From the sequence record OQ834936: DNA of 64,000 bases; one strand, written 5' to 3'. The position numbers and the translations under genes are program-made. Under the pieces are notes generated by a model. That model was not told the origin of the DNA and made no database searches. It saw nothing but the letters and a program-made list of their open reading frames with translations. Of this stretch, positions 146-49,453 are shown in pieces. The stretch's first letter is position 1. Each line of letters begins with the position of its first letter. The stretch comes from Shigella phage Henu12.

Positions 146-170
146 TAAAAAAGGCTGCCGAAGCAGCCCC
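146..170 (-). terminator. intrinsic terminator (GGCTGC-UUCG-GCAGCC hairpin plus U-tract on the minus transcript)
   Basis: Perfect 6-bp GC inverted repeat at 153-168 with tetraloop, followed on the minus strand by a T-run; sits just 3' of the rIIB-like stop. Confidence 0.6.
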
Positions 171-186
171 TTTAGGAATTTACTTA

Positions 187-1308
187 TTAAACTTCACGTT
201 TACGCTGAGAAATCAGTTCACCAGCAGTACCTACAACTACGTGAAGTGCTTCTGAACCATCCCACTCTTTGATGATTTCACGGCGACTATTTACAATCGC
301 TGCAACTTCATAACGGGAAGCTCGCATTTTCATGTCGTTGTAGTCAGTTGGTACTGAAACAACATCACGAGGATGAACACGAACTTTCAGGATAGTGTCA
401 CCAGAGAAGCTAGTTACATAATCCCAAGCACCAACGTGCAGACCCTGAGAGCAGGTTACATGGCGGTTATTATCAACCATCCAACGTGGCATCTCTACAA
501 TGTTACCCAAATCATTTGGAACTTTGCAGGTACGAGAGTCAAACAGTTTACCACCACGAGTTGTGACTTTCTTCCAACCGATGATATAACCTTCTTCATC
601 AATTTCAACATCGAGGTGTGATACGAAGCCCCAAAGTTGTTCTACAGAGTCTTTTGATGGGTTTTCCATCAGTTTTTCAAAGAATGCAATCAGTCGAACA
701 AAGCCATTATCACCTTTCTTCATCATATCCAGAATACGGTCTACCAGAGTTGAGCGCATCTGAACAGCACCGTAATACAGGTTGTCACCTTTGATGGTTA
801 CAGCACCTTGAGTGAAGTTCTCAATAGACTTGCGAATGTTCATCAGTTCAAAAGCTTTCTTGTACTCACCTGAAACAACAGCCATTACAATATCAGTGTA
901 GTTAGGGTGAGTTGACTCAACAATCTCAGACTCTGCACCGAAAGTCATGATAACAGAATCACCAGTAATCATGTATTCAATCTGGCTGTTATTCTGCATT
1001 GCTTCATGCAGAGCATTTACAGGTTCTGCTTTGACTGCTTCTTTAACAGCTTTTGCAACAGGTTTCTGCTTAGATACCTTCTTGGTCGCTTTAACTTTCT
1101 TAGCACTCTTTGCAATATCTTTCAGAGTCTTTGCAGGTTTTGCTTTGGTTTTCCCTGACAGCAGCGTTGCTTCATGGCGCTCTACAGCACGACCTACCGA
1201 ACGGGTTGAAGTGTTATACTTCAGAGCGATTGCAGTTTTGGTCAGTTTACCTTCTTTAACCAGTGCATAGATTTCTGCGTCGATTTGTGCTTTAGTCTTA
1301 GTAGTCAT
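187..1308 (-). CDS. rIIB: rIIB-like protein
   Basis: 373 aa ORF immediately downstream of and co-oriented with rIIA; Lys-rich N-terminal region; C-terminal motif VHPRDVVSVPTDYNDMKMR; assignment rests mainly on synteny. Confidence 0.55.
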   Translation of the reverse strand: MTTKTKAQIDAEIYALVKEGKLTKTAIALKYNTSTRSVGRAVERHEATLLSGKTKAKPAKTLKDIAKSAKKVKATKKVSKQKPVAKAVKEAVKAEPVNALHEAMQNNSQIEYMITGDSVIMTFGAESEIVESTHPNYTDIVMAVVSGEYKKAFELMNIRKSIENFTQGAVTIKGDNLYYGAVQMRSTLVDRILDMMKKGDNGFVRLIAFFEKLMENPSKDSVEQLWGFVSHLDVEIDEEGYIIGWKKVTTRGGKLFDSRTCKVPNDLGNIVEMPRWMVDNNRHVTCSQGLHVGAWDYVTSFSGDTILKVRVHPRDVVSVPTDYNDMKMRASRYEVAAIVNSRREIIKEWDGSEALHVVVGTAGELISQRKREV

Positions 1309-1358
1309 TTCAATATCTCTCTTTGTTGTTTAAAATTACTTAGTGGTTCGTATTCTAA

Positions 1359-1374
1359 GGGGCTTTTCAGCCCC
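1359..1374 (-). other. GC stem-loop GGGGCU-GAAA-AGCCCC (minus sense), no U-tract
   Basis: Perfect 6-bp inverted repeat between rIIA stop and rIIB start; identical copy at 6211-6226. Confidence 0.5.
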
Positions 1375-1388
1375 TGTCAAACTATTTT

Positions 1389-3761
1389 TTAATCCCAGCA
1401 TACAGTATCTTCTGGAATGCTCTTAGTGTCAAAACCTAAAAACTTACCAACTTCGACGGGTGATACTTTATTCCAATCCAGATTAGAAAGCAAGAAGTTT
1501 TCTTTACGGCGTTTCTCAAAGTAATCTTTGAACTTACTTTCAAGACGCTTCTTAGCGTTATCCAGAACCTTTCTTGGCTTACAAGAGCCTCTCATATTCC
1601 TGCGAATGGTATCAAGAGTGCTGGTAATATCTTTGTAAGCAACTGGTGCAGCAGTGTATGCCAAGCGTCCAAACATTGCTTCTATAGCCTCTTCATTCCC
1701 CTCTAAGAAAATAGTCTTCTTAAAGTCTTTACTGTAAATGTGGCCTCTGGACTTACGCTTATCAGCAAACATAAAGTTTCGAGAAATCACATTACAATCA
1801 GTAATATCATGATTATTAGTCATATATTGGTGAGTCAAGAAACGATGATACTCAATCCAATGTGTAGCATCAATGAAATCTTTCATCACTTGTTCATTGA
1901 CTTCTGTCCAGTCTTCAGGAATCTTTTTCCAGTTGGCTTTACGGAAGACATAAACTGACTGTCCAGTTAACTCTGTCATCAACGTTGCAGCACGTTCTGG
2001 TGAACATGAGAAGATTCCACCAATCACTTCATCACTCTGTGCTTTGATATACAGTTGTGGTTCTTCAATCTCATCAAAGTTCTCTTTAACCTCTGTATAA
2101 CGAATCATGTAAGTATTTGGACATATAAATGCTTTATACAGTTTTACAACACCACGTACAATAGTACGTTTTTCATAGTGGTGCTCTTTAGATGACATTG
2201 TATGCACACTTAACAGACTCTTGTCAAGCATATGCAAAGCTACAAACTCATCAAATTGCTGCTGACTGCTGAACAAGAAAGCAATACCATTGTAGCGACG
2301 GAAGTTAGAGTCTTCCTGTTCACGGTCACGGCAAGCTCCACGGATAATCTGGTTTTTACCAGTTGTCTTCTCAGACCCGTTCTTGTTTCGACGGTCATTA
2401 ATAAGGAACAAATAGTTGCTCAACTTGTCTTTACTCATTGCACCAAAGATACTAAACATTGCTGCATCTTGTGAATAAGTTGCTGAAGTTGCTCGAATAC
2501 GGTTCTCCAGACTGCTGTACTTGTAGTATGCTACAGGTTCATACAGATTACCAATATTAGGAACTGGATTACCATCTTTGTCAAGCCTCAAGTTACCTGC
2601 ATCATCTTTCAAGAATGACGGAGAACCATCTGCTTCAGTTAACTGACCACGACGGATACCTAACAGTTTTTGTTCAAGCTTTTTCAAGTTCTGGCCTTGC
2701 CATTCCAGAGAATCTTGGACGTGAATAAAGATTTCACGAGCCTCCTTCCTCATGGTATCATAGGCTTGAGCAGCATCAATCAGAGTTGGCTTGTTAGCAA
2801 TCTCTTTTACCACATCTTCTACGATTGTCTTAGTGATTTTCTTCACAGCTTCAACAATCTTGGTCTTAGTGGTCTCATTCATCTGCAATGCTTCACGAGA
2901 TGCAGCAATAGCCACTGAACCAATTGGCATGTAGATGTTAACAAGGTCTACAGCACTACGGAAGAACTGAGGCAGAATGTTTGTAAACTCTGAGCCAAGC
3001 AACTCACCCATTTCAACCGGATAAGCAATGTTACCCATGATTACATTGAAATGGACGCTGTTACTATTTGAGCGCCAGTTCTCTTTGTACTTCATTGCAT
3101 CATAGACACCATCTTCACGAGAAATGGAAGTCATTGCTTCAAGAATGTCATAGTACTCAACATTACACTCTGGCTTAACTTTAAAGTACGAGTATACATT
3201 GCTCGCTTCTTCATGAAACTTGTTGATACGGTTATCGGATACCGCTACTCGAACAGCTAAACCATTTGGCTCTGTAGTTGGGTTAGTAGTCAACTTAGTT
3301 ACTTGAGGGATACCATTCTCAAGGTAAACTGAGTATTTGTTAACTACACCATCAACATAGCTTGATACAGTGAATGACTGAGCAATTGCAAATGGGGACT
3401 TTGAACCGATACCCATAGCACCAATGTAGTCGTTTGAATCGTTCTTTGTAGATTCTCCATAGGTCATGTAAAGTTTCATAACTTTATCATGAGTCAGTCC
3501 TGTACCAAAGTCACGAACTTCAAAGAATGGCTCGAAACGAGTTGGTAAGTGAACCAAGAAAGGTTTATCAACGTTACCAGAATCAATGTGAGCATCTACT
3601 GCGTTACATGACAATTCACGAATTACAGCACGTTCTTTATATGTGTAAACACCTGAGCTTAGAAGACTGAACATTTCAGGTGTCATCTTAATCTGAGCCT
3701 GAGAGGTTTCCAGTGTACTTGAGCTTTTAATTACCGTTGCGTGGTCATTTACCATGCGCAT
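1389..3761 (-). CDS. rIIA: rIIA protein (GHKL/Bergerat-fold ATPase domain)
   Basis: 790 aa; N-terminal motifs ELSCNAVDAH, DFGTGL, GAMGIGSKS typical of GHKL ATPases as in T4 rIIA; followed by rIIB-like gene. Confidence 0.8.
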   Translation of the reverse strand: MRMVNDHATVIKSSSTLETSQAQIKMTPEMFSLLSSGVYTYKERAVIRELSCNAVDAHIDSGNVDKPFLVHLPTRFEPFFEVRDFGTGLTHDKVMKLYMTYGESTKNDSNDYIGAMGIGSKSPFAIAQSFTVSSYVDGVVNKYSVYLENGIPQVTKLTTNPTTEPNGLAVRVAVSDNRINKFHEEASNVYSYFKVKPECNVEYYDILEAMTSISREDGVYDAMKYKENWRSNSNSVHFNVIMGNIAYPVEMGELLGSEFTNILPQFFRSAVDLVNIYMPIGSVAIAASREALQMNETTKTKIVEAVKKITKTIVEDVVKEIANKPTLIDAAQAYDTMRKEAREIFIHVQDSLEWQGQNLKKLEQKLLGIRRGQLTEADGSPSFLKDDAGNLRLDKDGNPVPNIGNLYEPVAYYKYSSLENRIRATSATYSQDAAMFSIFGAMSKDKLSNYLFLINDRRNKNGSEKTTGKNQIIRGACRDREQEDSNFRRYNGIAFLFSSQQQFDEFVALHMLDKSLLSVHTMSSKEHHYEKRTIVRGVVKLYKAFICPNTYMIRYTEVKENFDEIEEPQLYIKAQSDEVIGGIFSCSPERAATLMTELTGQSVYVFRKANWKKIPEDWTEVNEQVMKDFIDATHWIEYHRFLTHQYMTNNHDITDCNVISRNFMFADKRKSRGHIYSKDFKKTIFLEGNEEAIEAMFGRLAYTAAPVAYKDITSTLDTIRRNMRGSCKPRKVLDNAKKRLESKFKDYFEKRRKENFLLSNLDWNKVSPVEVGKFLGFDTKSIPEDTVCWD

Positions 3762-3793
3762 AAGAATATCTCCTTAGTTGTCGATGTGGCAAA

Positions 3794-3822
3794 CTATATA
3801 ATTTTATAGATGCCACTGTCAA
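3794..3822 (-). promoter_or_regulatory. sigma70-like promoter upstream of rIIA
   Basis: Minus strand reads TTGACA, 16-17 nt spacer, TATATA, about 30 nt upstream of the rIIA RBS and ATG. Confidence 0.5.
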
Positions 3823-3823
3823 G

Positions 3824-4003
3824 TTACTTTTTAAATTTCTTTCCAGTTCCATTACAGTAAGGGCAACAATGACCTATACCAACTACCCCAGAACCTTCAC
3901 ACTCATCACAAGGTTCAGTCTCTGAGAAGTACTTGCATAGTAACATTGCAATAGCAACTATACAACCGAGTGAAAGAACAATTTCTAACCAATAACCTTG
4001 CAT
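3824..4003 (-). CDS. small membrane-anchored DnaJ-type zinc-finger protein (59 aa, below ORF-track cutoff)
   Basis: ATG at 4003 preceded by AGGAG 8 nt upstream; translation MQGYWLEIVLSLGCIVAIAMLLCKYFSETEPCDECEGSGVVGIGHCCPYCNGTGKKFKK has one hydrophobic helix and two CxxCxGxG repeats. Confidence 0.4.
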   Translation of the reverse strand: MQGYWLEIVLSLGCIVAIAMLLCKYFSETEPCDECEGSGVVGIGHCCPYCNGTGKKFKK

Positions 4004-4332
4004 ACCTTATCTCCTATAGTTCTGAATAGGACAAAACTTCTGTCATGAACAATACTCGAAGATACTGCAAAACTATTCTCAAGTATCTTTTTGTTTGGAT
4101 TGTAAAATTCTTCTTGAAACAAATCAAGAGCTTCTTGATGGTTCTGTGGAAGACCTTTGATATAGACCTTCAAAGTAACCGTTGTATAAATCTCAGAAGC
4201 TAACTCTGATTGTGCTGCTTGAAACAGTTCATTGATAAACTTATGACCATCTTCAGGACGCTTAATGTTTTCCCAACGTTCTTCAATGATTAAATTAACA
4301 TTCATCTGTTTAATTTTCATAGTAATCTCCAC
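3985..4332 (-). CDS. hypothetical protein
   Basis: 115 aa ORF, co-oriented, preceded by a terminator and followed by an overlapping small ORF. Confidence 0.45.
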   Translation of the reverse strand: MEITMKIKQMNVNLIIEERWENIKRPEDGHKFINELFQAAQSELASEIYTTVTLKVYIKGLPQNHQEALDLFQEEFYNPNKKILENSFAVSSSIVHDRSFVLFRTIGDKVCKVIG

Positions 4333-4333
4333 A

Positions 4334-4358
4334 AATTAAAAAGGCTCCCGTAGGAGCC
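4334..4358 (-). terminator. intrinsic terminator (GGCUCC-UACG-GGAGCC plus U-tract)
   Basis: 6-bp GC inverted repeat at 4343-4358 with tetraloop and T-run on the minus strand, directly 3' of the Nampt-family gene. Confidence 0.6.
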
Positions 4359-4373
4359 TCTTATCATACTGTT

Positions 4374-6200
4374 TTAAAGTTGCTTGTCAATAGTATTTCG
4401 AACATCACGCAGGTTAACGTAACCATAAGGTTGCGAGTTACTAAATACCAGTTTCAAAGCACTATGACAGTTGTCAATTGCACCTTCAAACTCTGCAAAG
4501 CCAAAACCATCTACAGCTACCAGCTTGTCACCATCCCACATAGGGACAACTCCACCAAAAGCAGACTTCTTAAGACCGCTGTCAGTTTTAGGGTCTTTAG
4601 CCAGCATAATTTCTTGACCATCCATCTGTGCAAGAGTTGCTTTAACAGCAAATGCAAAGGTGTCACGAGTCAGGTACTGATAGGTGTATGAGCCTACACC
4701 AAACACTACGTTAGAACTTGCAAAACCTTTATCAGCAAGACGTGACAGAATCTCATTAGCCCTTTCCAGAGTGATAGAATCACCGTAGATTAGCCCAATG
4801 TGCTCATCCAGTACTTTGTACCCTTTGGAGTTAACAGTGCCACCAAAGATGTTATACAGCGTGTGTATAGCTCCATCAATTTCTGCTGTTAACATACGCT
4901 TCACAGTAAACTGTCCAGTTTTCTGAGCGGTAATCAGGTTGATTGTGTCAATATAATCAAAATCTTCATTTTCAACAACCATCTCATAACCTTCAGAGAT
5001 TAACCAAGCAGAGAACCCAAAACCAATATCAGACATTTCACAATTCAAGATTGTGTCATGCAGATGGGTATTATCTGGTGCAAGACCTTTCATGTGCTTG
5101 TAGAACATTGACTTAGCAGTTTCCCATTCAACGGCTTTGTAACCTGTAACAATGTGAACAGGGTCTCCAGAGTCTGGACGAATTACCAACTTACCATCAC
5201 GATTCAGAATTACATTACGTAGCTCTGGCAGAATCTGTGTAACAGTACGCCAGAAGTTGTAAGTATCTGATACGGCACTTGCAATACCAGTTGGGTAAAC
5301 TTCTGTCAGAAGGCGATGGAAAGTTTCTACCTCACCACGCCAACGTTTGGCATCTAGTAATCCTTCAGACTGCATAATGTACTGTGAGTGAATATCCTCT
5401 TCTGTCAGGTCTTTCATATTCCATGAAATGTTTGCACACATCACAGAGTGTTCAGTTGCTGGTACAGAGTTGCCAATATCACTGATTGTCATAAACTGAC
5501 CATAAGCACGTTTAGCAGTATACACAGCAGGGAAGCTGTCAGTACCTTTAAAGCTGGTCAAGTGACCTACAGCATTAAAAGCATCATCTGTGAAGCCAGA
5601 CATACCACGCATTGCAAAATCATGACACTGCCAAGGTAAATGGAAGTCATTGTCACAGGTCTTGTCAGCCCATTGTTTACAGATACGTTTGTAATGCAGT
5701 GCAATAGTTGCAATCGTACAAGCCTTCCAGATTTCAGCAGAGAAAGCATCTTCAAGGTAACCAGCTACCCAATGGAATCCCTCTACAGTGTTTTTAAAGA
5801 CAATCATCGGGACACGCATAGGGACAATTGTACCTTCCTCTACAGAGTAGACTTCAACAGGTAGGTAACCCAAGTCATGAAGTTCTTCCCAATGTTGACG
5901 ACCAATAGCATCTGCACCAAGGACACCATTCATGATTTCCAAGATTTCGTCAATGGCTTCTTTCTTATCACGTTCAAAGAACGTTGCATTCCAGTGGTCT
6001 ACCAGATAGTCTTTTACAAAACGCTGAATACCAAAGGCTACAACACCATCAATCTCTAACGGAGAGTTAAACCATTTATCTCCACGAGGTGTTAAGTTCA
6101 GCATAAGATACTGTGTAGCATCTGGATACTGGTAGAAATGGCCAGATTTGTAGGCATCTGCATTAAGTGCTGCTGGTACTGCATAAAGTGATTTAGTCAT
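4374..6200 (-). CDS. nicotinamide phosphoribosyltransferase family protein (Nampt/NadV-like; could be a Namat-type NAD+-forming transferase)
   Basis: 608 aa; N-terminus ALNADAYKSGHFYQYP resembles the Nampt start (LLATDSYKVTHYKQYP); GVGSYTYQY-type motifs; about 100 aa longer than canonical Nampt. Confidence 0.8.
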   Translation of the reverse strand: MTKSLYAVPAALNADAYKSGHFYQYPDATQYLMLNLTPRGDKWFNSPLEIDGVVAFGIQRFVKDYLVDHWNATFFERDKKEAIDEILEIMNGVLGADAIGRQHWEELHDLGYLPVEVYSVEEGTIVPMRVPMIVFKNTVEGFHWVAGYLEDAFSAEIWKACTIATIALHYKRICKQWADKTCDNDFHLPWQCHDFAMRGMSGFTDDAFNAVGHLTSFKGTDSFPAVYTAKRAYGQFMTISDIGNSVPATEHSVMCANISWNMKDLTEEDIHSQYIMQSEGLLDAKRWRGEVETFHRLLTEVYPTGIASAVSDTYNFWRTVTQILPELRNVILNRDGKLVIRPDSGDPVHIVTGYKAVEWETAKSMFYKHMKGLAPDNTHLHDTILNCEMSDIGFGFSAWLISEGYEMVVENEDFDYIDTINLITAQKTGQFTVKRMLTAEIDGAIHTLYNIFGGTVNSKGYKVLDEHIGLIYGDSITLERANEILSRLADKGFASSNVVFGVGSYTYQYLTRDTFAFAVKATLAQMDGQEIMLAKDPKTDSGLKKSAFGGVVPMWDGDKLVAVDGFGFAEFEGAIDNCHSALKLVFSNSQPYGYVNLRDVRNTIDKQL

Positions 6201-6210
6201 CTTTTTATCT

Positions 6211-6226
6211 CTCTCAAAGTGGGGCT
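6211..6226 (-). other. GC stem-loop GGGGCU-GAAA-AGCCCC (minus sense), no U-tract
   Basis: Identical to the 1359-1374 hairpin; lies between the Prs-family stop and the Nampt-family RBS. Confidence 0.5.
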
Positions 6227-6244
6227 TTTCAGCCCCTAAAGTTG

Positions 6245-7144
6245 TTATTCAATATTTGCTACGGTCACTTGTGAGAAGTGGGAAAGACCACGGTCTTTTT
6301 CATCCCCTAGTGAGTTTGTAGTGTAGATATGGTCGATACCATTGTCAAGGAGATTTTCAACACCTTTAGAGAAAATCCCATGAGTGACATACAGTTCCAC
6401 ACGTTCTGCTCCAGCTTCACGAAGATACTTTGCAGCCTCGATAAAGGTTCGACCACCGTCACAGATATCATCCAGAATCATGACAGTCTTACCTGTCAAG
6501 TCTACATCATCAAGGATTCGCATACCAGTGATTTCACCAGTTTTCAGGTTTCGTACCTTAGCCATTGTAATATAAGGTTTATCAACCTCTTTAGCAGCCT
6601 CTTCAGTCTTCTTAGCTGCACCTGCATCTGGAGCCACTAAGTAATCAATGCGTGGGTCACTTGCAAAGTGGACTGCTGCCTCTTTTTGAGGGAGGTTGTA
6701 GAAGCTCTTAAACAAATTCTCTGCAACATTACTGTGAGTATCCAGAGCACATACTGCATCGAACTCCATAGCATTTACAAGATTTGCAAAGACTTTAAGT
6801 GCTGCTGCATCACCTTTAAACATGTGACGGTCATAGCGAGCATTTGGTAAGAATCCAAAGACAACAGTTTTCAGAGTTGCTTTCTGAGGAATCAAACGGT
6901 CAATTGCTTCTTTAGCCATAGCTAATGCAAAGAGTGTGTCTTTGTCATAACCTTGTACTGTGAAGACTACGTTTTCAATCTTACCAGCAGCATGTTCAGC
7001 AAAGTCTACTAAGTCTTCTGAGAAGTTACCACCAATCTCCCCAGAAGGGAACTGGATAATGTTGAAGGTCTCTTGATGAGAACCTTTGGAATTTGAATTA
7101 AGTAGAACTCGAATAGTAGTTTTCATAATATTTCTCTCAGTCAA
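6245..7144 (-). CDS. ribose-phosphate pyrophosphokinase family protein (Prs-like; could be an ADP-ribose pyrophosphokinase)
   Basis: 299 aa; Prs-like motifs FPSGEIGGNF (cf. RFSDGE), FGFLPNARYDR (cf. GYARQDRR) and the PRPP-binding loop MILDDICDGGRT. Confidence 0.8.
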   Translation of the reverse strand: MTERNIMKTTIRVLLNSNSKGSHQETFNIIQFPSGEIGGNFSEDLVDFAEHAAGKIENVVFTVQGYDKDTLFALAMAKEAIDRLIPQKATLKTVVFGFLPNARYDRHMFKGDAAALKVFANLVNAMEFDAVCALDTHSNVAENLFKSFYNLPQKEAAVHFASDPRIDYLVAPDAGAAKKTEEAAKEVDKPYITMAKVRNLKTGEITGMRILDDVDLTGKTVMILDDICDGGRTFIEAAKYLREAGAERVELYVTHGIFSKGVENLLDNGIDHIYTTNSLGDEKDRGLSHFSQVTVANIE

Positions 7145-7442
7145 AAGTTACAAATGTTACAGCCATAGCTGATTTACATTTCTTTGGGTCTACAATGTGG
7201 TAGATAACTGAACAGTTTCCTGTTCCGTCTGGTACTGGTTTTGTCCAAGTACGTTCAATATTTGGCTCTCCAAACTCTTTATAGAATCCGTTGGAATAGT
7301 GGTTTACCATCTCAATAGCAAGTGCATCTGGAACGTGACCACGTATCATATACATCTCACAACCATTTCCACCATCACTCACTAGTGGTATAATATCCCA
7401 TTGTTCTCTAGCCATGATAAGTTGCCTCATAAACTGTCTCAA
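7137..7442 (-). CDS. hypothetical protein
   Basis: 101 aa ORF, co-oriented, overlaps neighbours by a few nt. Confidence 0.4.
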   Translation of the reverse strand: MRQFMRQLIMAREQWDIIPLVSDGGNGCEMYMIRGHVPDALAIEMVNHYSNGFYKEFGEPNIERTWTKPVPDGTGNCSVIYHIVDPKKCKSAMAVTFVTFD

Positions 7443-7923
7443 GCTTCAACAAGAGAGATATTGCCAGAAATGCGTATTCCCTGTCAAGCATTGGTGGCAT
7501 ATTATTTATAAGATATGCTTCCTGTTCTTCCCAAGTCATCTTAGGAGCTTCTGGAAGCTTCTCTCCCTGCTTCTGGTTATCTTCTTGAGTCTGGATAAAC
7601 CAGTTCGAGCAATGGTGCTCTCCACCTTTTGTCACGGGCTTATGGTGGCCTAATGTGAAAGCTTTCTTTCCAGAATATCTACAAAGCTTATTAAGAGTTG
7701 CAATAGTGTTCTTGACAACACAGTATTCATAGAGGTTGTCAATAGTATAGTGAGGGTAGTACTGGAACAAGGCACTATCACGAAACTTACCACGGTTCCA
7801 AAGTACCATGTGGTTAGAATTTGAAGGGTCATACTGATGTGAATCGATGAACTCTTGACGCTCATCAAAATCAAGACGAAGAACAGACATTGCAGCAGCA
7901 CGTTTCAGATTTGAATGGTACAT
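7408..7923 (-). CDS. hypothetical protein
   Basis: 171 aa ORF; no motif recognised. Confidence 0.45.
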   Translation of the reverse strand: MYHSNLKRAAAMSVLRLDFDERQEFIDSHQYDPSNSNHMVLWNRGKFRDSALFQYYPHYTIDNLYEYCVVKNTIATLNKLCRYSGKKAFTLGHHKPVTKGGEHHCSNWFIQTQEDNQKQGEKLPEAPKMTWEEQEAYLINNMPPMLDREYAFLAISLLLKLETVYEATYHG

Positions 7924-7931
7924 GATTTCTC

Positions 7932-7962
7932 CAAAATAAAAAGGGAACCTTTTACAGTTCCC
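7932..7962 (-). terminator. intrinsic terminator (GGGAAC hairpin plus U-tract)
   Basis: Inverted repeat GGGAAC/GTTCCC at 7943-7962 with T-rich run on the minus strand. Confidence 0.5.
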
Positions 7963-7975
7963 TAATCATATACGT

Positions 7976-8287
7976 TTACTGAGCTATTTTCAAGACTTTT
8001 AAGAAACCTTCCTCACCAATTGCATCATAAACGTTTTCAGTTGGCTTGATAAGGTTATTCAAGCATACAATTTTCTTACGCTTCTTGTCATAAGTAAGCT
8101 TCAGTTGTTTCAACTCTTTGTCATCTTCAGGGTGCTCATTGTACATCTTCACAGCTTCTTTAAAGCTAATGTAGCCACCACCTAGAGTAAGGAAACCTGT
8201 ACCACAATAGTGGGAGTTGTGTTTATCAGCCATAAACTGGCACAGGATAGAAATCTGAATTTTACGAGTGTTATAAACCTTTTCCAT
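7976..8287 (-). CDS. hypothetical protein
   Basis: 103 aa ORF. Confidence 0.45.
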   Translation of the reverse strand: MEKVYNTRKIQISILCQFMADKHNSHYCGTGFLTLGGGYISFKEAVKMYNEHPEDDKELKQLKLTYDKKRKKIVCLNNLIKPTENVYDAIGEEGFLKVLKIAQ

Positions 8288-8298
8288 TTTAATAATCC

Positions 8299-8556
8299 TT
8301 ACTTGCTACGTTTACGGTTGCGAGCTTTTTTAGCTGCACGTTTAATTGCTGCTGCACCAGTTTGGCGATGAGCTTGCTTCTTACCACCTTTACCACGTCC
8401 AACATGGATGTAAGGTTGCTGTTCAATCTGGCTTGCAAGAACCTGTGCAACTGCTGAAGCGTCTACTCCAACCTGCTTACCAGTCATTGAAACGATAGCT
8501 GCTGCTTTTGCCAGAGCTGCTAAGAAACCTGCTTTCATGTTTGAAAAAATTCCCAT
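8299..8556 (-). CDS. hypothetical small protein with Ala-rich N-terminus and highly basic C-terminus
   Basis: 85 aa; C-terminal KRAAKKARNRKRSK. Confidence 0.4.
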   Translation of the reverse strand: MGIFSNMKAGFLAALAKAAAIVSMTGKQVGVDASAVAQVLASQIEQQPYIHVGRGKGGKKQAHRQTGAAAIKRAAKKARNRKRSK

Positions 8557-8571
8557 TTTAATATCTCTCTG

Positions 8572-8892
8572 TTAAAGTTTAATACAGAACTGCTTCAGTT
8601 CTTCTTCTGTTACTGCGACAACTTTATCATCAACTCTCAAGTTTGTCGCGTAAAAGTTTGAGAAATGTGCTTTGTATTTTACTTTAAATACTCCGGCGTC
8701 CTCAATCTGCTTCAAGGCTGTCATTCCAGTGGAATCAAATAGGCTTTTTGTGTAGTTTCTCCACTCTTCAAGAGTTTCTGGATTGACTTTATAGCTACCA
8801 AACAGTGACATGTTACAAGCTACCATAACAATCTCACCACGTTTGAATCCACCATTACTCTGTACGCCATTGACAGTCGCCTTGCCAGCCAT
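8572..8892 (-). CDS. hypothetical protein
   Basis: Start chosen at the internal ATG (8892) that has a GGAG RBS; the longer ORF-track version would overlap nrdG by about 120 nt. Confidence 0.4.
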   Translation of the reverse strand: MAGKATVNGVQSNGGFKRGEIVMVACNMSLFGSYKVNPETLEEWRNYTKSLFDSTGMTALKQIEDAGVFKVKYKAHFSNFYATNLRVDDKVVAVTEEELKQFCIKL

Positions 8893-9346
8893 ATTCTTTT
8901 CTCCACAAGTTTTGGTTATCTGAACCACGATATGGTTTGTTCGTTGGTTTAGAAGCATCATACTTACCATCAATCACTACGTCAACATATTTCATCACTT
9001 CTTTGTTAATTTTTTCATGAAGCTGAAATCCTGTCCACAGCCAGATAGTCTTGTCTGGATAGATAGACTTAACCTTCTGACAAATCTTGGTGACTTCCTC
9101 AATATTACGGTCATCAAGTGGTTCTCCACCAAGAATTGACAGACCACTTATAGAGTCATCTTCCAAGAGTCTTATAATGCCATAAAGGTTTGCATAAGTA
9201 AACTCTTTACCAGCATTAAACTTCCAAGATTCCTTGTTAAAACAACCTTCACAGTGATGTTTGCAGCCAGCTACAAAAAGACTGACACGAGCACCTTCAC
9301 CGTTCGCTGTATCGAATTTTCGTATTTCCATGTAGTTCATTAGCAC
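8855..9346 (-). CDS. nrdG: anaerobic ribonucleotide reductase activating protein (radical SAM)
   Basis: 163 aa; CKHHCEGC radical-SAM cysteine motif near the N-terminus; adjacent to nrdD. Confidence 0.8.
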   Translation of the reverse strand: MLMNYMEIRKFDTANGEGARVSLFVAGCKHHCEGCFNKESWKFNAGKEFTYANLYGIIRLLEDDSISGLSILGGEPLDDRNIEEVTKICQKVKSIYPDKTIWLWTGFQLHEKINKEVMKYVDVVIDGKYDASKPTNKPYRGSDNQNLWRKEYGWQGDCQWRTE

Positions 9347-9732
9347 ACCTCAACTTCAAAACTTACATGTTTTGTGACGTACTCTTCACAATGCTCTTTA
9401 ATAAATTCCTGAAGCAGTTCATCTTCCTGAGCACGAGTCATCAAAGCAACATACTTTGGATTTATTGTTTGCTGAATACTGTAGAAAGACATGTCACCAA
9501 TTTCTGTACCATATGAATCTGACCATGTTCCAGTTACTACTAAGACTTTATCACTCAACTCCGTAGGGAGTTCAATGTCATCATCCTTTGCGTCATCAAT
9601 AACAGAGTCAGTTATTAAAAGAGTACATGCTATGTAAAACTCTGAGTATTTTCTGTGAGTTTTCTCACAAGAGCCACACTCTAAAGCATAGTCTTTAAGC
9701 CAGTTCATTTGATTTTTATTTAATTTAGTCAT
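9340..9732 (-). CDS. hypothetical protein
   Basis: 130 aa acidic ORF. Confidence 0.45.
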   Translation of the reverse strand: MTKLNKNQMNWLKDYALECGSCEKTHRKYSEFYIACTLLITDSVIDDAKDDDIELPTELSDKVLVVTGTWSDSYGTEIGDMSFYSIQQTINPKYVALMTRAQEDELLQEFIKEHCEEYVTKHVSFEVEVC

Positions 9733-9828
9733 TTCTCTTTCCTTTCAATGTGTTGTATAAAAGCCCTAACAAGAAACCTAGTAAGACAGAGCCTACTAAG
9801 GTGACTAACAAGAATGTCTTAATCATCA

Positions 9829-10113
9829 TCAATACCACCATATTGTTTGGTTGTTATCACAAACATACAGGTACTCTGTCCCGATTTGTGGGACGATGAT
9901 TGTAGTGTTGCCTGATATGACTGTCATATAGTATATGTATTCCCTGCTTTGTGATGTTTGCTGACAATTGTTTGCATTCATCCAAATTCTTGTTTGATAA
10001 GTGTCATATATTAGTAACCCTACTAGTATTGCTAATGCAATTCCAAGGAACCATAACCAGAATTTAGGCCAAAAGTCATAACTCATACTGTGACCTCTTG
10101 ATAAACTTTCCAA
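9829..10113 (-). CDS. hypothetical membrane protein
   Basis: 94 aa with hydrophobic segment FWLWFLGIALAILVGLLIY. Confidence 0.4.
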   Translation of the reverse strand: MESLSRGHSMSYDFWPKFWLWFLGIALAILVGLLIYDTYQTRIWMNANNCQQTSQSREYIYYMTVISGNTTIIVPQIGTEYLYVCDNNQTIWWY

Positions 10114-10265
10114 ACATTCTTTGTAAACTCTTCATCGTACCAAACACCGTTAGCAGCTTGCCAAGACACAGTGTATTTGTCTTCAGACACATGCTTGAGA
10201 ACAGCCTCAAAAGTTCGATTAGATTTTCCTGCAACGAAAAGATAGACCTTACCAATTTCCAGCAT
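10083..10265 (-). CDS. hypothetical small protein
   Basis: 60 aa ORF; a competing overlapping frame exists. Confidence 0.3.
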   Translation of the reverse strand: MLEIGKVYLFVAGKSNRTFEAVLKHVSEDKYTVSWQAANGVWYDEEFTKNVWKVYQEVTV

Positions 10266-10329
10266 TGTGGTATCTTCAATAAAAAAGGTGATGCAAGCCT
10301 ATCAAGACCTACACCACCTTGTCAACTAC

Positions 10330-12484: not shown

Positions 12485-12508
12485 GCAAAAAAGGTCTCCG
12501 AAGAGACC
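12485..12508 (-). terminator. intrinsic terminator (GGUCUC-UUCG-GAGACC plus U-tract)
   Basis: 6-bp inverted repeat at 12493-12508 with tetraloop and T-run on the minus strand, upstream of the nrdD RBS. Confidence 0.6.
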
Positions 12509-12520
12509 CTTATATTAATT

Positions 12521-12721
12521 CTACTTAGAAAACTTTTCAATAAGCTTTTTAAGCTTTCCGCTCAAATCATGTTTGATATCTAATATCTCAAAGATAACCC
12601 ATACTAACATAGCTCCAAACAGAGCACCTTGTTTTAAATCAGTAAATAGGCTAGTAACCATGAATGCCAGAGCAATCATCGGAGCATCTTCAACAAAACC
12701 ATCCCATAAACGTTTAAGCAT
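12521..12721 (-). CDS. hypothetical small hydrophobic protein
   Basis: 66 aa with hydrophobic core. Confidence 0.35.
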   Translation of the reverse strand: MLKRLWDGFVEDAPMIALAFMVTSLFTDLKQGALFGAMLVWVIFEILDIKHDLSGKLKKLIEKFSK

Positions 12722-14029: not shown

Positions 14030-14409
14030 TCTGGTAAGATTCCTGTATCTAGAAAGTTTCTGGCTTCAGTTGTTGTCATAACAACCCATTTGTCCTTGTT
14101 GAACATATCAAGTGGTCTTGCATATGTTTGCTTTGGATTAAAACAATCAACATATCGTATATGTTCTTTCCAAGAACCATCTGGCATCTTAACTTTTAAG
14201 TCTAAGTCTGCAATATAATACAAAGACCGTCTTGGAATATAAAATAAATATAGTGAGTTATCTTTGCTACGTATTCTCGCATTGCGAATTAAATCTAGCA
14301 TACCTTTCTCCAAGTTAATTTTAGAGGGTCTTTTACGACCCTCATAGTTATTCAAACTAAACGCCACAACCCTCACAGTAGGCATCTTGTAGTGCTGATT
14401 TACCAACAC
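14026..14409 (-). CDS. hypothetical protein between nrdA and nrdB
   Basis: 127 aa basic ORF overlapping the nrdA 3' end; start uncertain. Confidence 0.35.
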   Translation of the reverse strand: MLVNQHYKMPTVRVVAFSLNNYEGRKRPSKINLEKGMLDLIRNARIRSKDNSLYLFYIPRRSLYYIADLDLKVKMPDGSWKEHIRYVDCFNPKQTYARPLDMFNKDKWVVMTTTEARNFLDTGILPE

Positions 14410-16608: not shown

Positions 16609-16634
16609 GTGAAAAAGGGTCTCCGAAGAGACCC
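16609..16634 (-). terminator. intrinsic terminator (GGGUCUC-UUCG-GAGACCC plus U-tract)
   Basis: 7-bp inverted repeat at 16617-16634 with tetraloop, T-run on the minus strand. Confidence 0.6.
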
Positions 16635-18033: not shown

Positions 18034-18263
18034 TAAGCCTCCTTATCTTCAAACAACTTTTGTTGAGACTCAATATAGTCCATTCGTTCTTTGAGTTCAA
18101 CACGTTTGCTTAACAGATGTTGAATTTGTGATTCCAGAGCATCCATCTCAGCTTCTGTAGCTGACTTAGCTTTATTGATAGTCTCCTTCAGTGCTGCTAC
18201 GCCGCTCTGGATTTTAGAAACATGGTCATTTTTGATTTTATTAAACATTTTAAACTCTCTCAT
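18033..18263 (-). CDS. hypothetical coiled-coil protein
   Basis: 76 aa, heptad-like charged pattern. Confidence 0.4.
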   Translation of the reverse strand: MREFKMFNKIKNDHVSKIQSGVAALKETINKAKSATEAEMDALESQIQHLLSKRVELKERMDYIESQQKLFEDKEA

Positions 18264-20298: not shown

Positions 20299-20333
20299 AC
20301 GTCTGTACAGGGCTTTGTAGTAGTTACTGACTA

Positions 20334-21194: not shown

Positions 21195-21245
21195 TTTAAT
21201 ACCTCTTTCTCAAATTAACTTTCAACTCAACTATCAAGGAGTACA

Positions 21246-21274
21246 ATCTTACAGACTTCGTACTCCCTTGTCAA
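21246..21274 (-). promoter_or_regulatory. sigma70-like promoter upstream of the SSB-like gene
   Basis: Minus strand TTGACA, 17 nt spacer, TAAGAT, then AAGAGG RBS and the ATG at 21194. Confidence 0.45.
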
Positions 21275-24609: not shown

Positions 24610-24645
24610 ATAAAAAGCCCCCAATTAAGGAGGCTTAAAAGTTAA
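24610..24645 (-). terminator. putative intrinsic terminator
   Basis: GCCUCC/GGGGGC imperfect hairpin followed by T-run on the minus strand. Confidence 0.4.
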
Positions 24646-29341: not shown

Positions 29342-29392
29342 CAAGGTGCTCATGGAAGAGTACCTTATACTATATCTTGTATAGGAGGTTAC

Positions 29393-32195: not shown

Positions 32196-32223
32196 TTGAC
32201 ATGAGTAACCTGACGGGTATACT
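32196..32223 (+). promoter_or_regulatory. sigma70-like promoter overlapping a nested inverted repeat
   Basis: TTGACA, 16 nt spacer, TATACT; overlaps the outer palindrome arm CTGACGGGT (32210-32218), which pairs with ACCCGTCAG (32248-32256). Confidence 0.5.
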
Positions 32224-32267
32224 ACCTATATAGAAAATTATATAGGAACCCGTCAGAAACCTCGGGG

Positions 32268-36232: not shown

Positions 36233-36262
36233 ACAAAAAAGGCTCCCGTAAAAAGGAGCCTT
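36233..36262. terminator. bidirectional terminator between convergent genes
   Basis: GGCTCC/GGAGCC 6-bp inverted repeat with 8-nt loop, A-run on one side and T-rich run on the other; sits between the td stop and the stop of the minus-strand gene. Confidence 0.55.
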
Positions 36263-39453: not shown

Positions 39454-39469
39454 TTATCAATCCTCTTTA

Positions 39470-39487
39470 TAGGGGCTGTGTAGCCCC
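39470..39487 (-). other. GC stem-loop GGGGCU-ACAC-AGCCCC directly upstream of the tail fiber RBS
   Basis: 7-bp inverted repeat between the two fiber genes, no U-tract. Confidence 0.4.
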
Positions 39488-39498
39488 TTTATAAATTT

Positions 39499-40707: not shown

Positions 40708-40709
40708 TA

Positions 40710-43754: not shown

Positions 43755-46515
<2,761 letters not shown>

Positions 46516-46516
<1 letters not shown>

Positions 46517-48753
46517 TATTCATCCTCTGGGTAGCTAGAGTTTAACAGAATATCTTCCTGACTCTTATCAGTGATATCCACCATCTTAGTAGCAATCTGC
46601 TTACCATCCAGATTAAAGGAAACGTTAAGCGTCTGCTTAGTTTGCAATGGTAGTCCAGAGGGAGTCATCATCATAGGTGTCTGGTTAAACTTGTTTGCAA
46701 AGTTATTTAGAGACTCAGACAGGTTGTTCATGATAATATCCCAATTTGACAAACCATTATCAACCCTCTGAATATTTCCAGAAGTGTCTGTGGTATATTG
46801 TGCAAACTGAAGTTGCCCATTCTGGTCAAAGAACATTGGACGTTTTGGATTAGTGATTCCTGAGATAGCTTCATTGAAAGGATTAGGTGTGTTAACCTCG
46901 TTAAATCTCTTTCCAGCATTCTTGTCAACTGAACCAGATAACATTAATGCAGAACCACCTACACCAAGAGCCATTCTGGTTGCTGATACACCAGCCGTTG
47001 TAGCTGCTGTTTCTGCTGCTGTAGTTAATCCAAACTTCTGTGCAATCTTAGCTAAGATACCTTCTTCAAAGATACTCTTGACAAATGCTACAGTACCACC
47101 AAAGATTTTAGCGACTTTTGTAATAGCTGCAATTGAGACACCAATAGCGGTGAACGTAGCAACTAACTCAGCAGAATCCTTGATTAGTTTCTGTTGACTA
47201 GCATCTAATTCCTTGAAATAGCCCATTGAGGTATAGTACAATGAAGAAATGCGGTACATGATATCTGTCACGAAGTCTAGAAGGTTACTAGCACCTTTTA
47301 AAAGGTAACCAATACCTGTACCAAGTGCTTCAGATGTACCAAGGGAACCTTGCAAGAACATTGCAACTGAGTTAGAGAGTTGTGAGATACCTTCGCTAGA
47401 GTTGTTAAACAAAGCTACAAGGGTGTTATCCCACATTGCCTTTGCTTGACCCATAGAGGTAGCTGTCTGCTTAGAAACTGCATTCATACCACCTGCTGCT
47501 TCAACAAGCTCTCTCATTTTTTCTGAGACTTTTGGTAGAACGTCTTTTGCAAGAAGCTGACCATCTTTCATCATCTTGTCAAGTTCTTGTGGAGTTTTAC
47601 CAATAGCATCAGCAAATAACTGAACCGCACCTGCCAAACGGTCACCTAACTGACCACGAAGTTCTTCAGCCTGAATCTTACCTTTAGATGCCATTTGCTG
47701 GAAAGCAACCATGATACCTTTCAAGTCTTCATCAGAAGCACCACGAATACGTGAGAACATAGCAGCATTTTTATAGAACTCTTGAGTTCCTTTAAAACCT
47801 AACTCTGGTTGAGCACCAGCAGCGAAGTTTGAGTACTGCTTCATAGTGTCTGTGTAGTTCTGACCAATCTGGTGAGAGAACGTAGCAGCGAACATTCTAG
47901 CTTGCTGTGTATCCCCTCCAAAGATAGCTGTTGAGGCTAACTGTGCAGACTGTCTCTTTACACCTGCATCAATAGTCTTCTGAGCTAATTCCAGCATAGC
48001 ATACGCTGAAACAAAACCACCTACAAGCTGTCTTAGTGAAGAGTTTGCTCTGTCTTGTAACCAAGCTGACTCTCTGACTGCCTTAAGTCTAGCATTTTCT
48101 GCAATAACCCAACGTTTGGTAGTGTCAATGAGTTTCTTGACTTCCATCTCATACTCACCAACTTTACCACTACCTTTGTACTTATTATAGATTCCTTGTA
48201 AGCTTCCTCTGAAGGAAGTAGCCATTTGGTTACCTTGTCCACCAATTGTTTCAAGACGACGAGTCAAACCAGAATAGAAGTTGTTGTTAAACATTCTTTC
48301 CATCTGTCTTTGAGCAATATCAGGTCTAACTCTAGGTGAACCACCACCTCCAACCGGAGGGATAGTGTTACCACGGCCTCTACCAACTCCACCACGAACA
48401 TTGACTTTACCTTCAACATTCATAGCTTGTCTTAGAGCCTTATTAATTTCTTTGGCTGTTTTCTTACCCTGTGTTTCTAATCTACGAAGTGATTTTACAC
48501 CTTGTGAATCTAAATTCATAGCATTGTTTAGGGATTTATTGATTCTGCCTGAAGCAGTCTGAGCGTTTTTTACAAGTCTGTTTAGAGCGTCTTGTGAACT
48601 TCTATTAGGCTTCACATCAAAGGCTTTATTGATATTGCGTTCAATACGTTGAGCAGACTGCATAGCCATTTTCTCAACTCTTTGCAAACCCTTAATAACC
48701 TTTTCACTGAATCCAAGTTCAACAATAAAACTATCAACTGTATATTGTGCCAT
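46516..48753 (-). CDS. tail tape measure protein
   Basis: 745 aa; Ala/Gly/Gln-rich, likely helical; sits between the chaperone genes and the baseplate genes. Confidence 0.7.
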
Positions 48754-48980
48754 TAAATTTTACCTGCTTTTCTGAGTTCGTTGTAAGCCATTTCTTCTTT
48801 ATATGACTTCTGGATTTCTAAATATTGACGTAGAGATAATAAATCAACGAAGGTCATATCAAAAAGTTGGTTGAGTGTTTCTTTACACCCATCCATACCA
48901 TAAATAGCAAGCACAAATTTCATCTCATCTGCTTCATCATAAGTTGCCTTTACAGCCCCGTCAGTCAGCGGGGTCTGCAT
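48753..48980 (-). CDS. tail assembly chaperone (putative)
   Basis: 75 aa ORF between tube and tape measure. Confidence 0.4.
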   Translation of the reverse strand: MQTPLTDGAVKATYDEADEMKFVLAIYGMDGCKETLNQLFDMTFVDLLSLRQYLEIQKSYKEEMAYNELRKAGKI

Positions 48981-48988
48981 AGAATAAC

Positions 48989-49390
48989 TTAAGCTTCCTG
49001 TTGAGAAGTTAGGCTTTTGAAAATGCTTGCCTCGAAAAAACTTCCGAAGTTTGCCTCCAAAGCAAAAGCTAAAAAGTCAATAAATTCACCGTAGTTCGCT
49101 TGGAAGTAACTATCAATTTTCAGTGGGAAGTCATTAACTGTTGCCCCCTGAAATAGTGTCTCTGCCATTGCATCAATATCTAGTTCATCAACCTTTTCAA
49201 AGCAAGCTTCAACGAGTTCTTTAAATGGGATTTTAGATTCCCCATCTTTAGAGGTTAAACCAGAGAACATCTGTGCAAATGCTGGTACAACTGCTTTACC
49301 AAGTTTCATAGAGATACGGATACCATCTCTTGCTCCAAGAAGAATAATAGTTACCTTCTTGCCATTAATCATTTTAGTTTCAGTCTTCAT
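48989..49390 (-). CDS. tail assembly chaperone (putative)
   Basis: 133 aa acidic ORF between tube and tape measure. Confidence 0.45.
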   Translation of the reverse strand: MKTETKMINGKKVTIILLGARDGIRISMKLGKAVVPAFAQMFSGLTSKDGESKIPFKELVEACFEKVDELDIDAMAETLFQGATVNDFPLKIDSYFQANYGEFIDFLAFALEANFGSFFEASIFKSLTSQQEA

Positions 49391-49416
49391 TGTGATTCCT
49401 TAAAAGTTATGCTATA

Positions 49417-49453
49417 AAAACACAAAAGGGGAAGACCTTTTACAGTCTCCCCC
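49417..49453 (-). terminator. intrinsic terminator after the tail tube gene
   Basis: GGGGAAGAC/GUCUCCCCC hairpin with T-rich run on the minus strand. Confidence 0.5.

Follow-up and report, generated by a model that had tools for sequence, protein, structure and literature searches.

We have analyzed a family of short GC-rich hairpins located in the gaps between the genes of Shigella phage Henu12 (sequence record OQ834936). The region studied, referred to below as the window, is the whole stretch of 64,000 nucleotides taken from this record. It belongs to a Mooglevirus (Ounavirinae, Felix O1-like myovirus); the first 25 kb are 98% identical to Shigella phage Henu11, and about 300 other Ounavirinae records also match the window. 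The genes are arranged in large blocks. The first is on the minus strand, runs from 25.9 kb down to position 1 and carries the genes for nucleotide metabolism, rIIA/rIIB and replication. A plus-strand block extends from 26.1 to 36.2 kb, and a second minus-strand block, with the tRNAs and then the structural genes, goes from about 62 down to 36.3 kb. Because of this orientation, the minus-strand transcript is the correct frame for the seven hairpins listed in a preliminary description of this DNA, all of which exist and are found on that strand. The four with UNCG loops and T-runs (153, 4343, 12493 and 16617) and the GAAA copy at 1359-1374 are exactly where they had been placed. The second GAAA copy is indeed an identical 16-mer, located at 6221-6236 rather than 6211-6226, and the ACAC copy occupies 39472-39487 (as an 18-mer, 39471-39488) instead of 39470-39487. 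The list was correct in its members and incomplete, as there are ten more intergenic hairpins, those starting at 7942, 10285, 14324, 20288, 21237, 24615, 29343 (plus strand), 36239, 49427 and 60275 in Table 1. From here on each site is named by its first coordinate.

Table 1. Hairpins of the family and two of the promoters associated with them (window coordinates; stems and tails given 5' to 3' on the strand indicated; promoters as -35, spacer length and -10).
Feature	Position	Strand	Stem, loop and tail, or promoter	Counterpart in relatives
Predicted terminator after rIIB	153-168	-	GGCUGC-UUCG-GCAGCC + U6 (147-152); d-score +32	Felix O1 t2
C(UACG)G hairpin	4343-4358	-	GGCUCC-UACG-GGAGCC + U5	
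Hairpin with U-tract	7942-7963	-	AGGGAAC-UGUAAAAG-GUUCCCU + U5	Felix O1 t124
Predicted terminator upstream of the neighbour of nrdD	10285-10320	-	16-bp hairpin, several G·U pairs, + U6	wV8 annotated terminator
C(UUCG)G hairpin	12493-12508	-	GGUCUC-UUCG-GAGACC + U6	Felix O1 t116; wV8 annotated terminator
C(UUCG)G hairpin upstream of nrdA	16617-16634	-	GGGUCUC-UUCG-GAGACCC + U5	Felix O1 t111
Hairpin after exonuclease gene	20288-20316	-	AAAGCCCUGUAC...GUAUGGGGCUUU + U-tract	Felix O1 t104; wV8 annotated terminator
Hairpin with U-tract	24615-24636	-	AAGCCUCC-UUAAUU-GGGGGCUU + U5	wV8 annotated terminator
Predicted terminator where plus and minus gene blocks converge	36239-36262		U-tract on minus strand	Felix O1 t79/t80; wV8 annotated
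Hairpin after tail-tube gene	49427-49455	-	AGGGGGAGACU-GUAAAA-GGUCUUCCCCU + U-tract	Felix O1 t64
Hairpin between tRNA cluster and first packaging gene	60275-60292	-	GACGGU-CUCUGC-ACCGUC + U6	
Hairpin between rIIA and rIIB, in promoter spacer	1359-1374	-	GGGGCU-GAAA-AGCCCC, no U-tract	
Promoterless hairpin with prs upstream and nadV downstream	6221-6236	-	GGGGCU-GAAA-AGCCCC, tail ACUUUG; d-score -33	
Hairpin between nrdA and small open reading frame preceding nrdB	14324-14343	-	GAGGGUC-GUAAAA-GACCCUC, tail UAAAAUU	
Hairpin between 402- and 843-amino-acid tail-fibre genes	39472-39487	-	GGGGCU-ACAC-AGCCCC, tail UAUAAAGAGG	Felix O1 t76; wV8 annotated terminator
Hairpin upstream of rIIA, AT-rich interior	3786-3816	-	GUGGCA...UGCCAC; spans spacer and -10 of TTGACA-18-TATAGT (3793-3822)	
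Hairpin over promoter, no U-tract	21237-21267	-	GGGAGUAC...GUACUCC; spans spacer and -10 of TTGACA-17-TAAGAT (21246-21274; 10/12)	
Hairpin in plus-strand gene block, no U-tract	29343-29366	+	AAGGUGCUC-AUGGAA-GAGUACCUU; abutted by TTGACA (29338-29343)	
Putative promoter directly downstream of 153 hairpin	117-144	-	TTGAAA-16-TATAAT (11/12 consensus match)	
Putative promoter, spacer filled by 1359-1374 hairpin	1352-1380	-	TTGACA-17-TAGAAT (11/12)	

The hairpins are clearly more frequent than expected by chance. Perfect hairpins (at least 6 bp, at least four of them G:C, and a 4-nt loop) numbered eight in the window, against 1.24 +/- 1.20 with a maximum of 6 in 200 dinucleotide shuffles. Seven of the eight were intergenic, in a window with only about 6% of intergenic DNA. 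An excess over shuffled sequence was one of the two points on which the preliminary description had made the family depend, and the motif GGGGCT-N4-AGCCCC that it had singled out appears three times where 0.00 were expected. In the same way, a hairpin of -12 kcal/mol or lower was found within 60 nt after 19 of the 91 gene ends, compared to 3% of random coding windows. The bare motif CTTCGG was not enriched in the window (13 vs 10.1), and a generic terminator scan did not rise above the shuffles (16 vs 11.8 and 11 vs 12.6). A scan of the whole window against Rfam at its gathering thresholds gave 17 tRNA matches (60451-63728) and none at any of the hairpins.

Two groups can be separated by the U-tract, for which we required at least about five U in the first 8 nt past the stem. 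The count was 5-7 at 153, 4343, 7942, 10285, 12493, 16617, 20288, 24615, 36239 (on the minus strand), 49427 and 60275, and only 2-4 at 1359 (UUAGAAUA), 6221 (ACUUUGAG), 14324 (UAAAAUUA), 39472 (UAUAAAGA), 21237 and 29343. Every site of the family is on the sense strand, 1-27 nt past a stop codon, and folds with -8 to -23 kcal/mol. The hairpin/T-tract score (d-score in Table 1; d'Aubenton-Carafa formula with modern energy parameters, which provides a ranking and not a calibrated threshold) was positive at most U-tract sites and between -16 and -52 at the sites without it. Rho-independent terminators had been predicted computationally in Felix O1 (Whichard et al., 2010, Table 2; PMC3185647), and those numbered in Table 1 are direct orthologues of the window hairpins, located in the same gaps. 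Equivalent terminators are annotated in wV8 (NC_012749) and phiEa21-4 (EU710883). The rIIA/rIIB and prs/nadV hairpins are absent from the published terminator tables. The preliminary description had read the hairpins followed by T-runs as intrinsic terminators of the minus-strand transcript, and the published orthologues, the conserved positions, the paired changes upstream of nrdA (see below) and the positive scores all agree with that reading. Judging from these sequence features, the U-tract hairpins are to be taken as Rho-independent terminators that the literature on the relatives had already predicted. Four of them, 153, 12493 and 16617 with C(UUCG)G and 4343 with C(UACG)G, carry C(UNCG)G loops, a class that is retained in the relatives as UUCG or UCCG.

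The sites were compared with the genomes of nine relatives and with up to 30 IMG/VR contigs, and the U-tract sites are kept in position across them. At 10285 the comparison consists of the terminator annotated in wV8, and the Felixounavirus orthologues of 16617 and 14324 were recovered by motif search and re-anchoring. The 153 hairpin is conserved in 30 IMG/VR loci, with variants that change GCAGCC to GCGGCC (a U·G wobble) or the loop from UUCG to UCCG, and the 4343 site is fully conserved in the nine relatives. Upstream of nrdA, the GGGUCUC/GAGACCC of Henu12 corresponds to GAGCCUC/GAGGCUC in Felixounavirus, that is, two compensatory pair changes around an unchanged UUCG. At 21237 a G-C pair becomes A-U in Felixounavirus, also a compensatory change. 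Besides the wobble at 153, G·U pairs that form on the sense strand were found at 7942, where GGGAAC appears as GGGGAC, and at the tail-fibre site, where one clade (contigs L077-L080) has GGGGGCU/AGCCCUC. On the sense strand, about six stem substitutions led to G·U and two to A·C. The folding energies of the imperfect hairpins are biased to the same strand. At 10285 the minus-strand RNA reaches -23.3 kcal/mol (z -6.8) and the plus strand -6.6 (z -0.9), at 49427 the values are -20.0 and -14.4 kcal/mol, and 20288 shows the same sense-strand bias (third pair of imperfect hairpins, -17.6 vs -14.7 kcal/mol). The stem changes that do occur thus appear to preserve the pairing of the RNA on the sense strand.

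This pattern bears on whether the perfect palindromes (GGGGCT-N4-AGCCCC and the like) could act as DNA, either as the operator of a dimeric phage regulator or as the target of recombination or of a homing endonuclease. Their perfect symmetry, with an invariant stem, a free 4-bp centre and half-site centres 10 bp apart, would suit such a role, and so would the position of one copy precisely in the spacer that separates the -35 from the -10 of the rIIB promoter, the presence of the same 16-mer at a different site in SUSP2 and the replacement of the prs/nadV copy by HNH genes. However, the variants at 153, at 7942 and in the L077-L080 clade pair only as sense-strand RNA, and the longer members of the family are strongly asymmetric between strands in their folding. 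In the distant genera it is the hairpin that is retained and not the half-site sequence, and two of the three GGGGCT-N4-AGCCCC copies have no promoter to regulate. Given the sense-strand G·U pairs, a DNA-level role as operator or recombination site is disfavoured, and we consider it improbable.

At least eight of the hairpins adjoin or share sequence with strong sigma-70-like promoters. This systematic association is not found in the preliminary description, nor is the promoter that encloses the 1359 hairpin. The four best sigma-70 matches of the first 20 kb (11/12; 1380-1352, 3822-3793, 4390-4363 and 144-117) all touch a hairpin, and the hairpin/promoter pairs are conserved in the relatives, as is the TATAAT of the 117-144 promoter. 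Three putative promoters end just upstream of a terminator hairpin: TTGACA-16-TATGAT (4363-4390) 4 nt from 4343, TTGAAA-17-TATGAT (7965-7993; 10/12) 1 nt from 7942 and the promoter-like TTGAAA-17-TAATAT (12512-12540; 9/12) 3 nt from 12493. The chance of a -10 ending 1-4 nt upstream at three of eight terminators is about 4e-5 (a rough Poisson estimate, with some 40 minus-strand promoter-like matches per 20 kb). Another TTGACA (10320-10325) abuts the 5' arm of the 10285 hairpin. More generally, a hairpin of -10 kcal/mol or lower directly adjoins 8% of the 75 TTGACA hexamers, compared to 1.3% of random positions, and five of the six sites in question are intergenic (1380, 3822, 10325, 21274 and 29338). 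At 21237 Felixounavirus has TTGACA-17-TAGAAT and a hairpin. At 3786 SUSP2 carries a different hairpin around TTGACA-17-TAAAGT, and the cassette is absent in Felixounavirus. In addition, a hairpin CGGGU...ACCCG (-13 kcal/mol) on the plus strand at 32196-32253 lies across and past the -10 of an 11/12 promoter, TTGACA-16-TATACT; its AT-rich inner palindrome CTATATAGAAAATTATATAGG resembles the CTATAAAATTATATAG found inside the 3786-3816 hairpin.

A start site usually lies 7 nt past the -10. On this basis, transcription from the 4390, 7993 and 12540 promoters is predicted to start around positions 4356, 7958 and 12505, in each case inside the 5' arm of the stem, and since the starts would fall there, these transcripts should lack a complete terminator.

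The copies without U-tract have a different kind of conservation. The rIIA/rIIB junction is TTGAC(A/T)-[A]GGGGCT-N4-AGCCCC-T-TA(G/A)AAT in all the Mooglevirus, Suspvirus and Felixounavirus contigs. Stem and both hexamers are invariant in about 29 loci, and the loop (GAAA, GCAA, TTGA or TCAA) and the 8 nt past TAGAAT are variable. The 1359 copy has no U-tract because the -10 hexamer occupies its position. More distant relatives have other stems at this junction, such as GGGCUG-GAAA-CAGCCC in phiEa21-4, and in contig L040 a AAGUGGUC/GGCCACUU stem wraps the -10 of TTGACA-17-TCTAAT. At 6221 the orthologues keep the stem with at least nine different loops, followed by ACUUUG in Mooglevirus and AUUUUG in Felixounavirus. 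The tail-fibre site shows the loops ACAC, UUAU, AUAA and UGAU; it is GGGGCU-N4-AGCCCC-UUUU(A/U)AGAGG in Felixounavirus, has the tails UAUAAAG or UAGAAAG in Mooglevirus and becomes a full UUCG terminator in phiEa21-4. Compared with their orthologues in Felix O1 and wV8, the tail-fibre (t76 orthologue) and prs/nadV copies of this Mooglevirus have lost the short U-tract. The 14324 hairpin is identical in Felixounavirus and SUSP1, and the site downstream of nrdA presents three different stems in total, with GGGGGCUGAAAAGCCCC followed by UUUU in SUSP2 and GGGUCGG/CCGACCC in phiEa21-4.

At 1359, 6221 and their orthologues, the loops found on the GGGGCU/AGCCCC stem are GAAA, GCAA, UUGA, UCAA, UAAA, UGAC, UACA, UUUA, UUCA and GCAU. 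Since they vary freely while the stems stay, the GNRA loop that the preliminary description named as one of its tetraloop classes is incidental, and a GNRA-specific function was rejected on this variation among orthologues. Other ideas were discarded. Terminators of antisense transcripts would need T-rich tails on the plus strand; these are inconsistent, and only at 39472 is the tail T-rich, a feature that wV8 does not share. A T4-type late promoter beside the ACAC hairpin was rejected as well: the window has just two occurrences of TATAAATA, which fall in coding sequence, and no such motif is common to the late intergenic gaps. RNase III sites were set aside because the stems have just 6-7 bp, and RNase E motifs past the stems are too degenerate for scoring. 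Our comparison indicates that 1359, 6221, 14324 and 39472 are position-conserved hairpins in which the stem matters and the loop does not. They appear to form one evolutionary series with weak terminators, with a U-tract that in Mooglevirus was eroded or had its place taken by a promoter hexamer. Each of the four stands between what seem to be functionally coupled genes, between which full termination would be harmful.

Taken together, the family is probably the intergenic transcription punctuation of a Felix O1-like phage, made of terminators, composite terminator/promoter cassettes and leaky copies without U-tract. The hairpins would work as part of the sense-strand RNA, over most of the window the RNA of the minus strand. 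Those with a U-tract would stop transcription in a Rho-independent way, four of them capped by the extra-stable C(UNCG)G tetraloops. Many would form composite cassettes with early promoters of sigma-70 type, in three predicted layouts. In the first, the hairpin fills the spacer between -35 and -10 or wraps the -10 (1359, 3786, 10285, 21237 and 29343). In the second it starts 1-4 nt past the -10 (4343, 7942 and 12493), so that the start site would lie inside the 5' arm and the complete terminator would be lost from the cassette's own transcript. In the third the hairpin precedes the promoter (153). Within a gap of 40-80 nt, transcription arriving from upstream would end or be attenuated and would then start anew, as in the layout of the promoter-early stem-loops (PeSLs) of phages RB49 and phi1. 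The copies without U-tract (1359, 6221, 14324 and 39472, and also 21237 and 29343) would represent the leaky end of the same series, either with a promoter hexamer in the place of the U-tract or located between co-transcribed partners (rIIA/rIIB, prs/nadV, the nrdA/nrdB region, tail fibre/tail fibre). Their most likely effect would be weak termination, the protection of the upstream cistron from 3' exonucleases by a 3'-terminal hairpin, or both.

A stable GC hairpin without U-tract between co-transcribed genes can be expected to stop 3' exonucleases and to shift the balance of the upstream and downstream products. Intercistronic hairpins that stabilise mRNA in this manner include the repetitive extragenic palindromic (REP) elements, for example those of malEFG, from which the window hairpins differ in being much shorter (6-7 bp) and having no sequence relation. 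The hairpins without U-tract could be purely post-transcriptional: transcription would read through them completely, and the stem would block 3'-to-5' exonucleases after Rho-dependent termination or RNase E cleavage, or mark a processing site, favouring the upstream cistron. The lack of U-tract, the strongly negative terminator scores and the combination of conserved stem and free loop are what such elements would show. Their position also fits, 8-14 nt past the upstream stop codon and 18-20 nt ahead of the next ATG, with partner genes on both sides that need co-transcription and AU-rich single-stranded tails (ACUUUG, UAAAAUU) after the stems. Besides, hairpins of the CUUCGG type are reported to stabilise the mRNA of T4 gene 32 (PMC8948821). 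On the other side, the Felixounavirus and phiEa21-4 orthologues carry U-tracts, one of them being a full UUCG terminator, which argues for termination as the ancestral or alternative state, and the 1359 copy is inside a promoter. We regard this explanation as possible, with the odds against it; leaky terminators and 3'-end-protecting hairpins are both plausible descriptions of these copies, and so is the reading as attenuators or stability elements offered in the preliminary description.

The position of the hairpins could also be related to translation. The GAAA and ACAC copies had been described as lying a few nt upstream of a ribosome-binding site, which holds at 6221 and 39472, with about 5 nt from the stem to the start of the Shine-Dalgarno sequence. 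It does not hold at 1359, located about 37 nt from its Shine-Dalgarno and inside a promoter. A GC-rich local fold might keep the AU-rich Shine-Dalgarno single-stranded, or provide ribosome standby or insulation between cistrons. At most sites the ATG in fact follows the stem end at a constant distance of 18-25 nt, whether or not there is a U-tract, and the minimum-free-energy fold at 6221 leaves the Shine-Dalgarno unpaired. However, the same spacing arises simply from a compact gap that holds a terminator and a ribosome-binding site, the 1359 copy is too far away, and genomes without the 6221 hairpin retain the same ribosome-binding site. We find a translational role very improbable.

Several observations weigh against the interpretation of the family as transcription punctuation. 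Three U-tract sites have negative scores, 10285 (-10.6), 49427 (-17.1) and 60275 (-1.5); we think that at the first two the reason is a stem trimmed one base short, which shifts the tail. The hairpins without U-tract (scores -16 to -52) miss the tail that defines canonical terminators and we have not filed them as such; for them, a leaky terminator and a pure stability element are not separable by computation. Promoter-like matches as a class are barely above the shuffles (68 vs 50.5 +/- 6.6 and 51 vs 46.8 +/- 7.1), and the significance of the promoters lies only in their positional coincidence with hairpins. No convincing promoter was found at 6221, 14324, 16617, 20288, 24615, 39472 or 49427, so the composite cassettes cover only part of the family, and since 16617, 20288, 24615 and 49427 are among these sites, read-through must also occur. 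The GGGGCU/AGCCCC stem is nearly invariant within each site and hence gives little true covariation; at the rIIB site two loci have a C·A mismatch without compensation, and at the nadV site two have a damaged stem. The 6221 hairpin is dispensable, as at least six of 28 contigs have an HNH gene in its place. Finally, no mapping of 3' or 5' ends of any Ounavirinae phage was found in the searchable literature, and for this reason termination, promoter use and start sites are all inferred here.

The closest known system is that of the PeSLs of the T4-type phages RB49 and phi1 (Arbiol et al., 2010; PMC2839356) and PST and nt-1 (Comeau et al., 2014; PMC4122927). In a PeSL, a stop codon within AT-rich sequence comes first, followed by a sigma-70 promoter of consensus type, a stem-loop rich in G/C and a Shine-Dalgarno with ATG; the stem-loop can occupy the -35/-10 spacer, cover the -10 or come just past it (PMC2839356). 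In lacZ fusions the stem-loops acted as effective terminators, and shuffling of open reading frames (ORFs) is mediated by the cassettes (PMC2839356; PMC4122927). PeSL copies are similar over about 100 bp and recombine with one another, which yields mini-circles as well as the shuffled ORFs. The window cassettes are alike in the order of the elements, in the stem-loop geometry, in the presumed termination or attenuation of upstream transcription and in the ORF insertions and deletions nearby. Specifically, they have near-consensus promoters, as judged by consensus match, preceded by a stop codon and AT-rich sequence and followed by a Shine-Dalgarno and ATG, and stem-loops in the PeSL positions. 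The differences are that they belong to phages of another subfamily, that many copies are without promoter, that they share short strings (TTGACA(A)GG and the stem) instead of about 100 bp, and that they are also found between core genes and are not confined to hyperplastic regions. Possible hints of exchange are the short shared strings and identical 16-mers and the insertions, deletions or swaps at 4343, 6221, 3786 and 14324. Because extended similarity and recombination are not established, we call the window cassettes PeSL-like and not PeSL homologues.

The C(UUCG)G hairpins of T4 and other phages, of the form (X)nCUUCGG(Y)n, are abundant, mostly intergenic and associated with termination and mRNA stability (Tuerk et al., 1988, PNAS 85:1364, as cited in PMC8948821). 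The likeness is limited to the four C(UNCG)G copies, all in the U-tract subset, as the GGGGCU/AGCCCC subfamily has no conserved loop class. In phiEa21-4 (L011 and L097) we found 12 identical copies of GGACTCTTCGGAGTCC followed by T4-6 as terminators, some at sites whose window orthologues use other stems. The paralogous copies within this genome share one sequence, in contrast to orthologous sites, which vary from genus to genus; this suggests that a 'house' terminator was homogenised or repeatedly replaced.

Gene content also varies next to the hairpins. Directly downstream of the 4343 terminator and its ribosome-binding site (window 4333-4373), SUSP1, S.Kent and LF82P2 (L003, L006 and L007) have different extra ORFs of about 210-350 nt, and the Shine-Dalgarno/ATG context is reused in these insertions. 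At prs/nadV, an HNH endonuclease gene of about 490 nt exactly replaces the hairpin (window 6201-6244) in SUSP1, S.Kent 1-2-1 and at least five IMG/VR contigs (L003 6889-7441 and L006 6887-7439; also L044, L045, L047, L048 and L050), and this palindrome may be at or near a homing site. Perfect hairpins at 10819 and 46276, and three more at 18677-18695, 19191-19208 and 28880-28897 that resembled family members preceded by ACTAT, fall in coding sequence and were excluded from the family. Those at 19191-19208 (minus strand) and 28880-28897 (plus strand) are the same perfect palindrome, GACCCCGAAACAGGGGTC, which encodes the DPETGV of a YDPETGVF(T/N)W motif located near the N-termini of two homing-endonuclease ORFs of HNH/NUMOD4 type (18747-19283, minus, and 28826-29341, plus). 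The GCGGGG...CCCCGC hairpin at 18677-18695 (minus strand) is within a GIY-YIG-like ORF (18250-18750). Counting the two HNH/NUMOD4-type ORFs and this one, the window has at least three free-standing homing-endonuclease genes. Henu11 (L001 18001-30792) is about 790 nt longer than positions 1-12000 of the window, and the difference is found around the small ORFs at 7.1-8.3 kb. The 17 tRNA genes form a cluster (60451-63728, minus strand) located upstream of those for packaging and structure, an arrangement shared with Felix O1 and wV8.

Overall, we consider the finding real and functional, and also ordinary: the U-tract hairpins had already been published as predicted terminators of this phage group, and for the most part the finding leaves the picture unchanged. 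The copies without U-tract and the overlap with promoters are best described, from what their sequences suggest, as PeSL-like terminator/promoter cassettes and graded terminators, in this case in Ounavirinae. How transcription passes the numerous (about 20) terminators of Felix O1, a phage with no known RNA-polymerase modifiers, was stated to be unknown by the authors of its genome (PMC3185647). The overlap of promoters and terminator stems suggests how transcription may restart after terminators, a partial answer to their question, and it would extend the PeSL cassette design from the T4-type phages to Ounavirinae. A more speculative idea, which we put forward only tentatively, is that Felix O1-like phages use self-insulating cassettes of PeSL type, in which an early promoter fires inside or beside the terminator that shields it, and that these cassettes are homogenised and exchanged by recombination within the genome. 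The hints of such exchange are the identical 16-mers at unrelated sites, the 12 identical copies of phiEa21-4 and the hairpin swap of SUSP2. If this were true, the cassettes would explain how Felix O1 passes its terminators without known modifiers and would serve as linkers for the insertion of gene cassettes and homing endonucleases. Orthologous hairpins that gain or lose the U-tract between genera while keeping the stem provide a natural series from full to leaky terminators, useful for annotation and for tests of the U-tract in vivo. They are also relevant to the engineering of Felix O1-like therapeutic phages, as insertions beside the cassettes are evidently tolerated.

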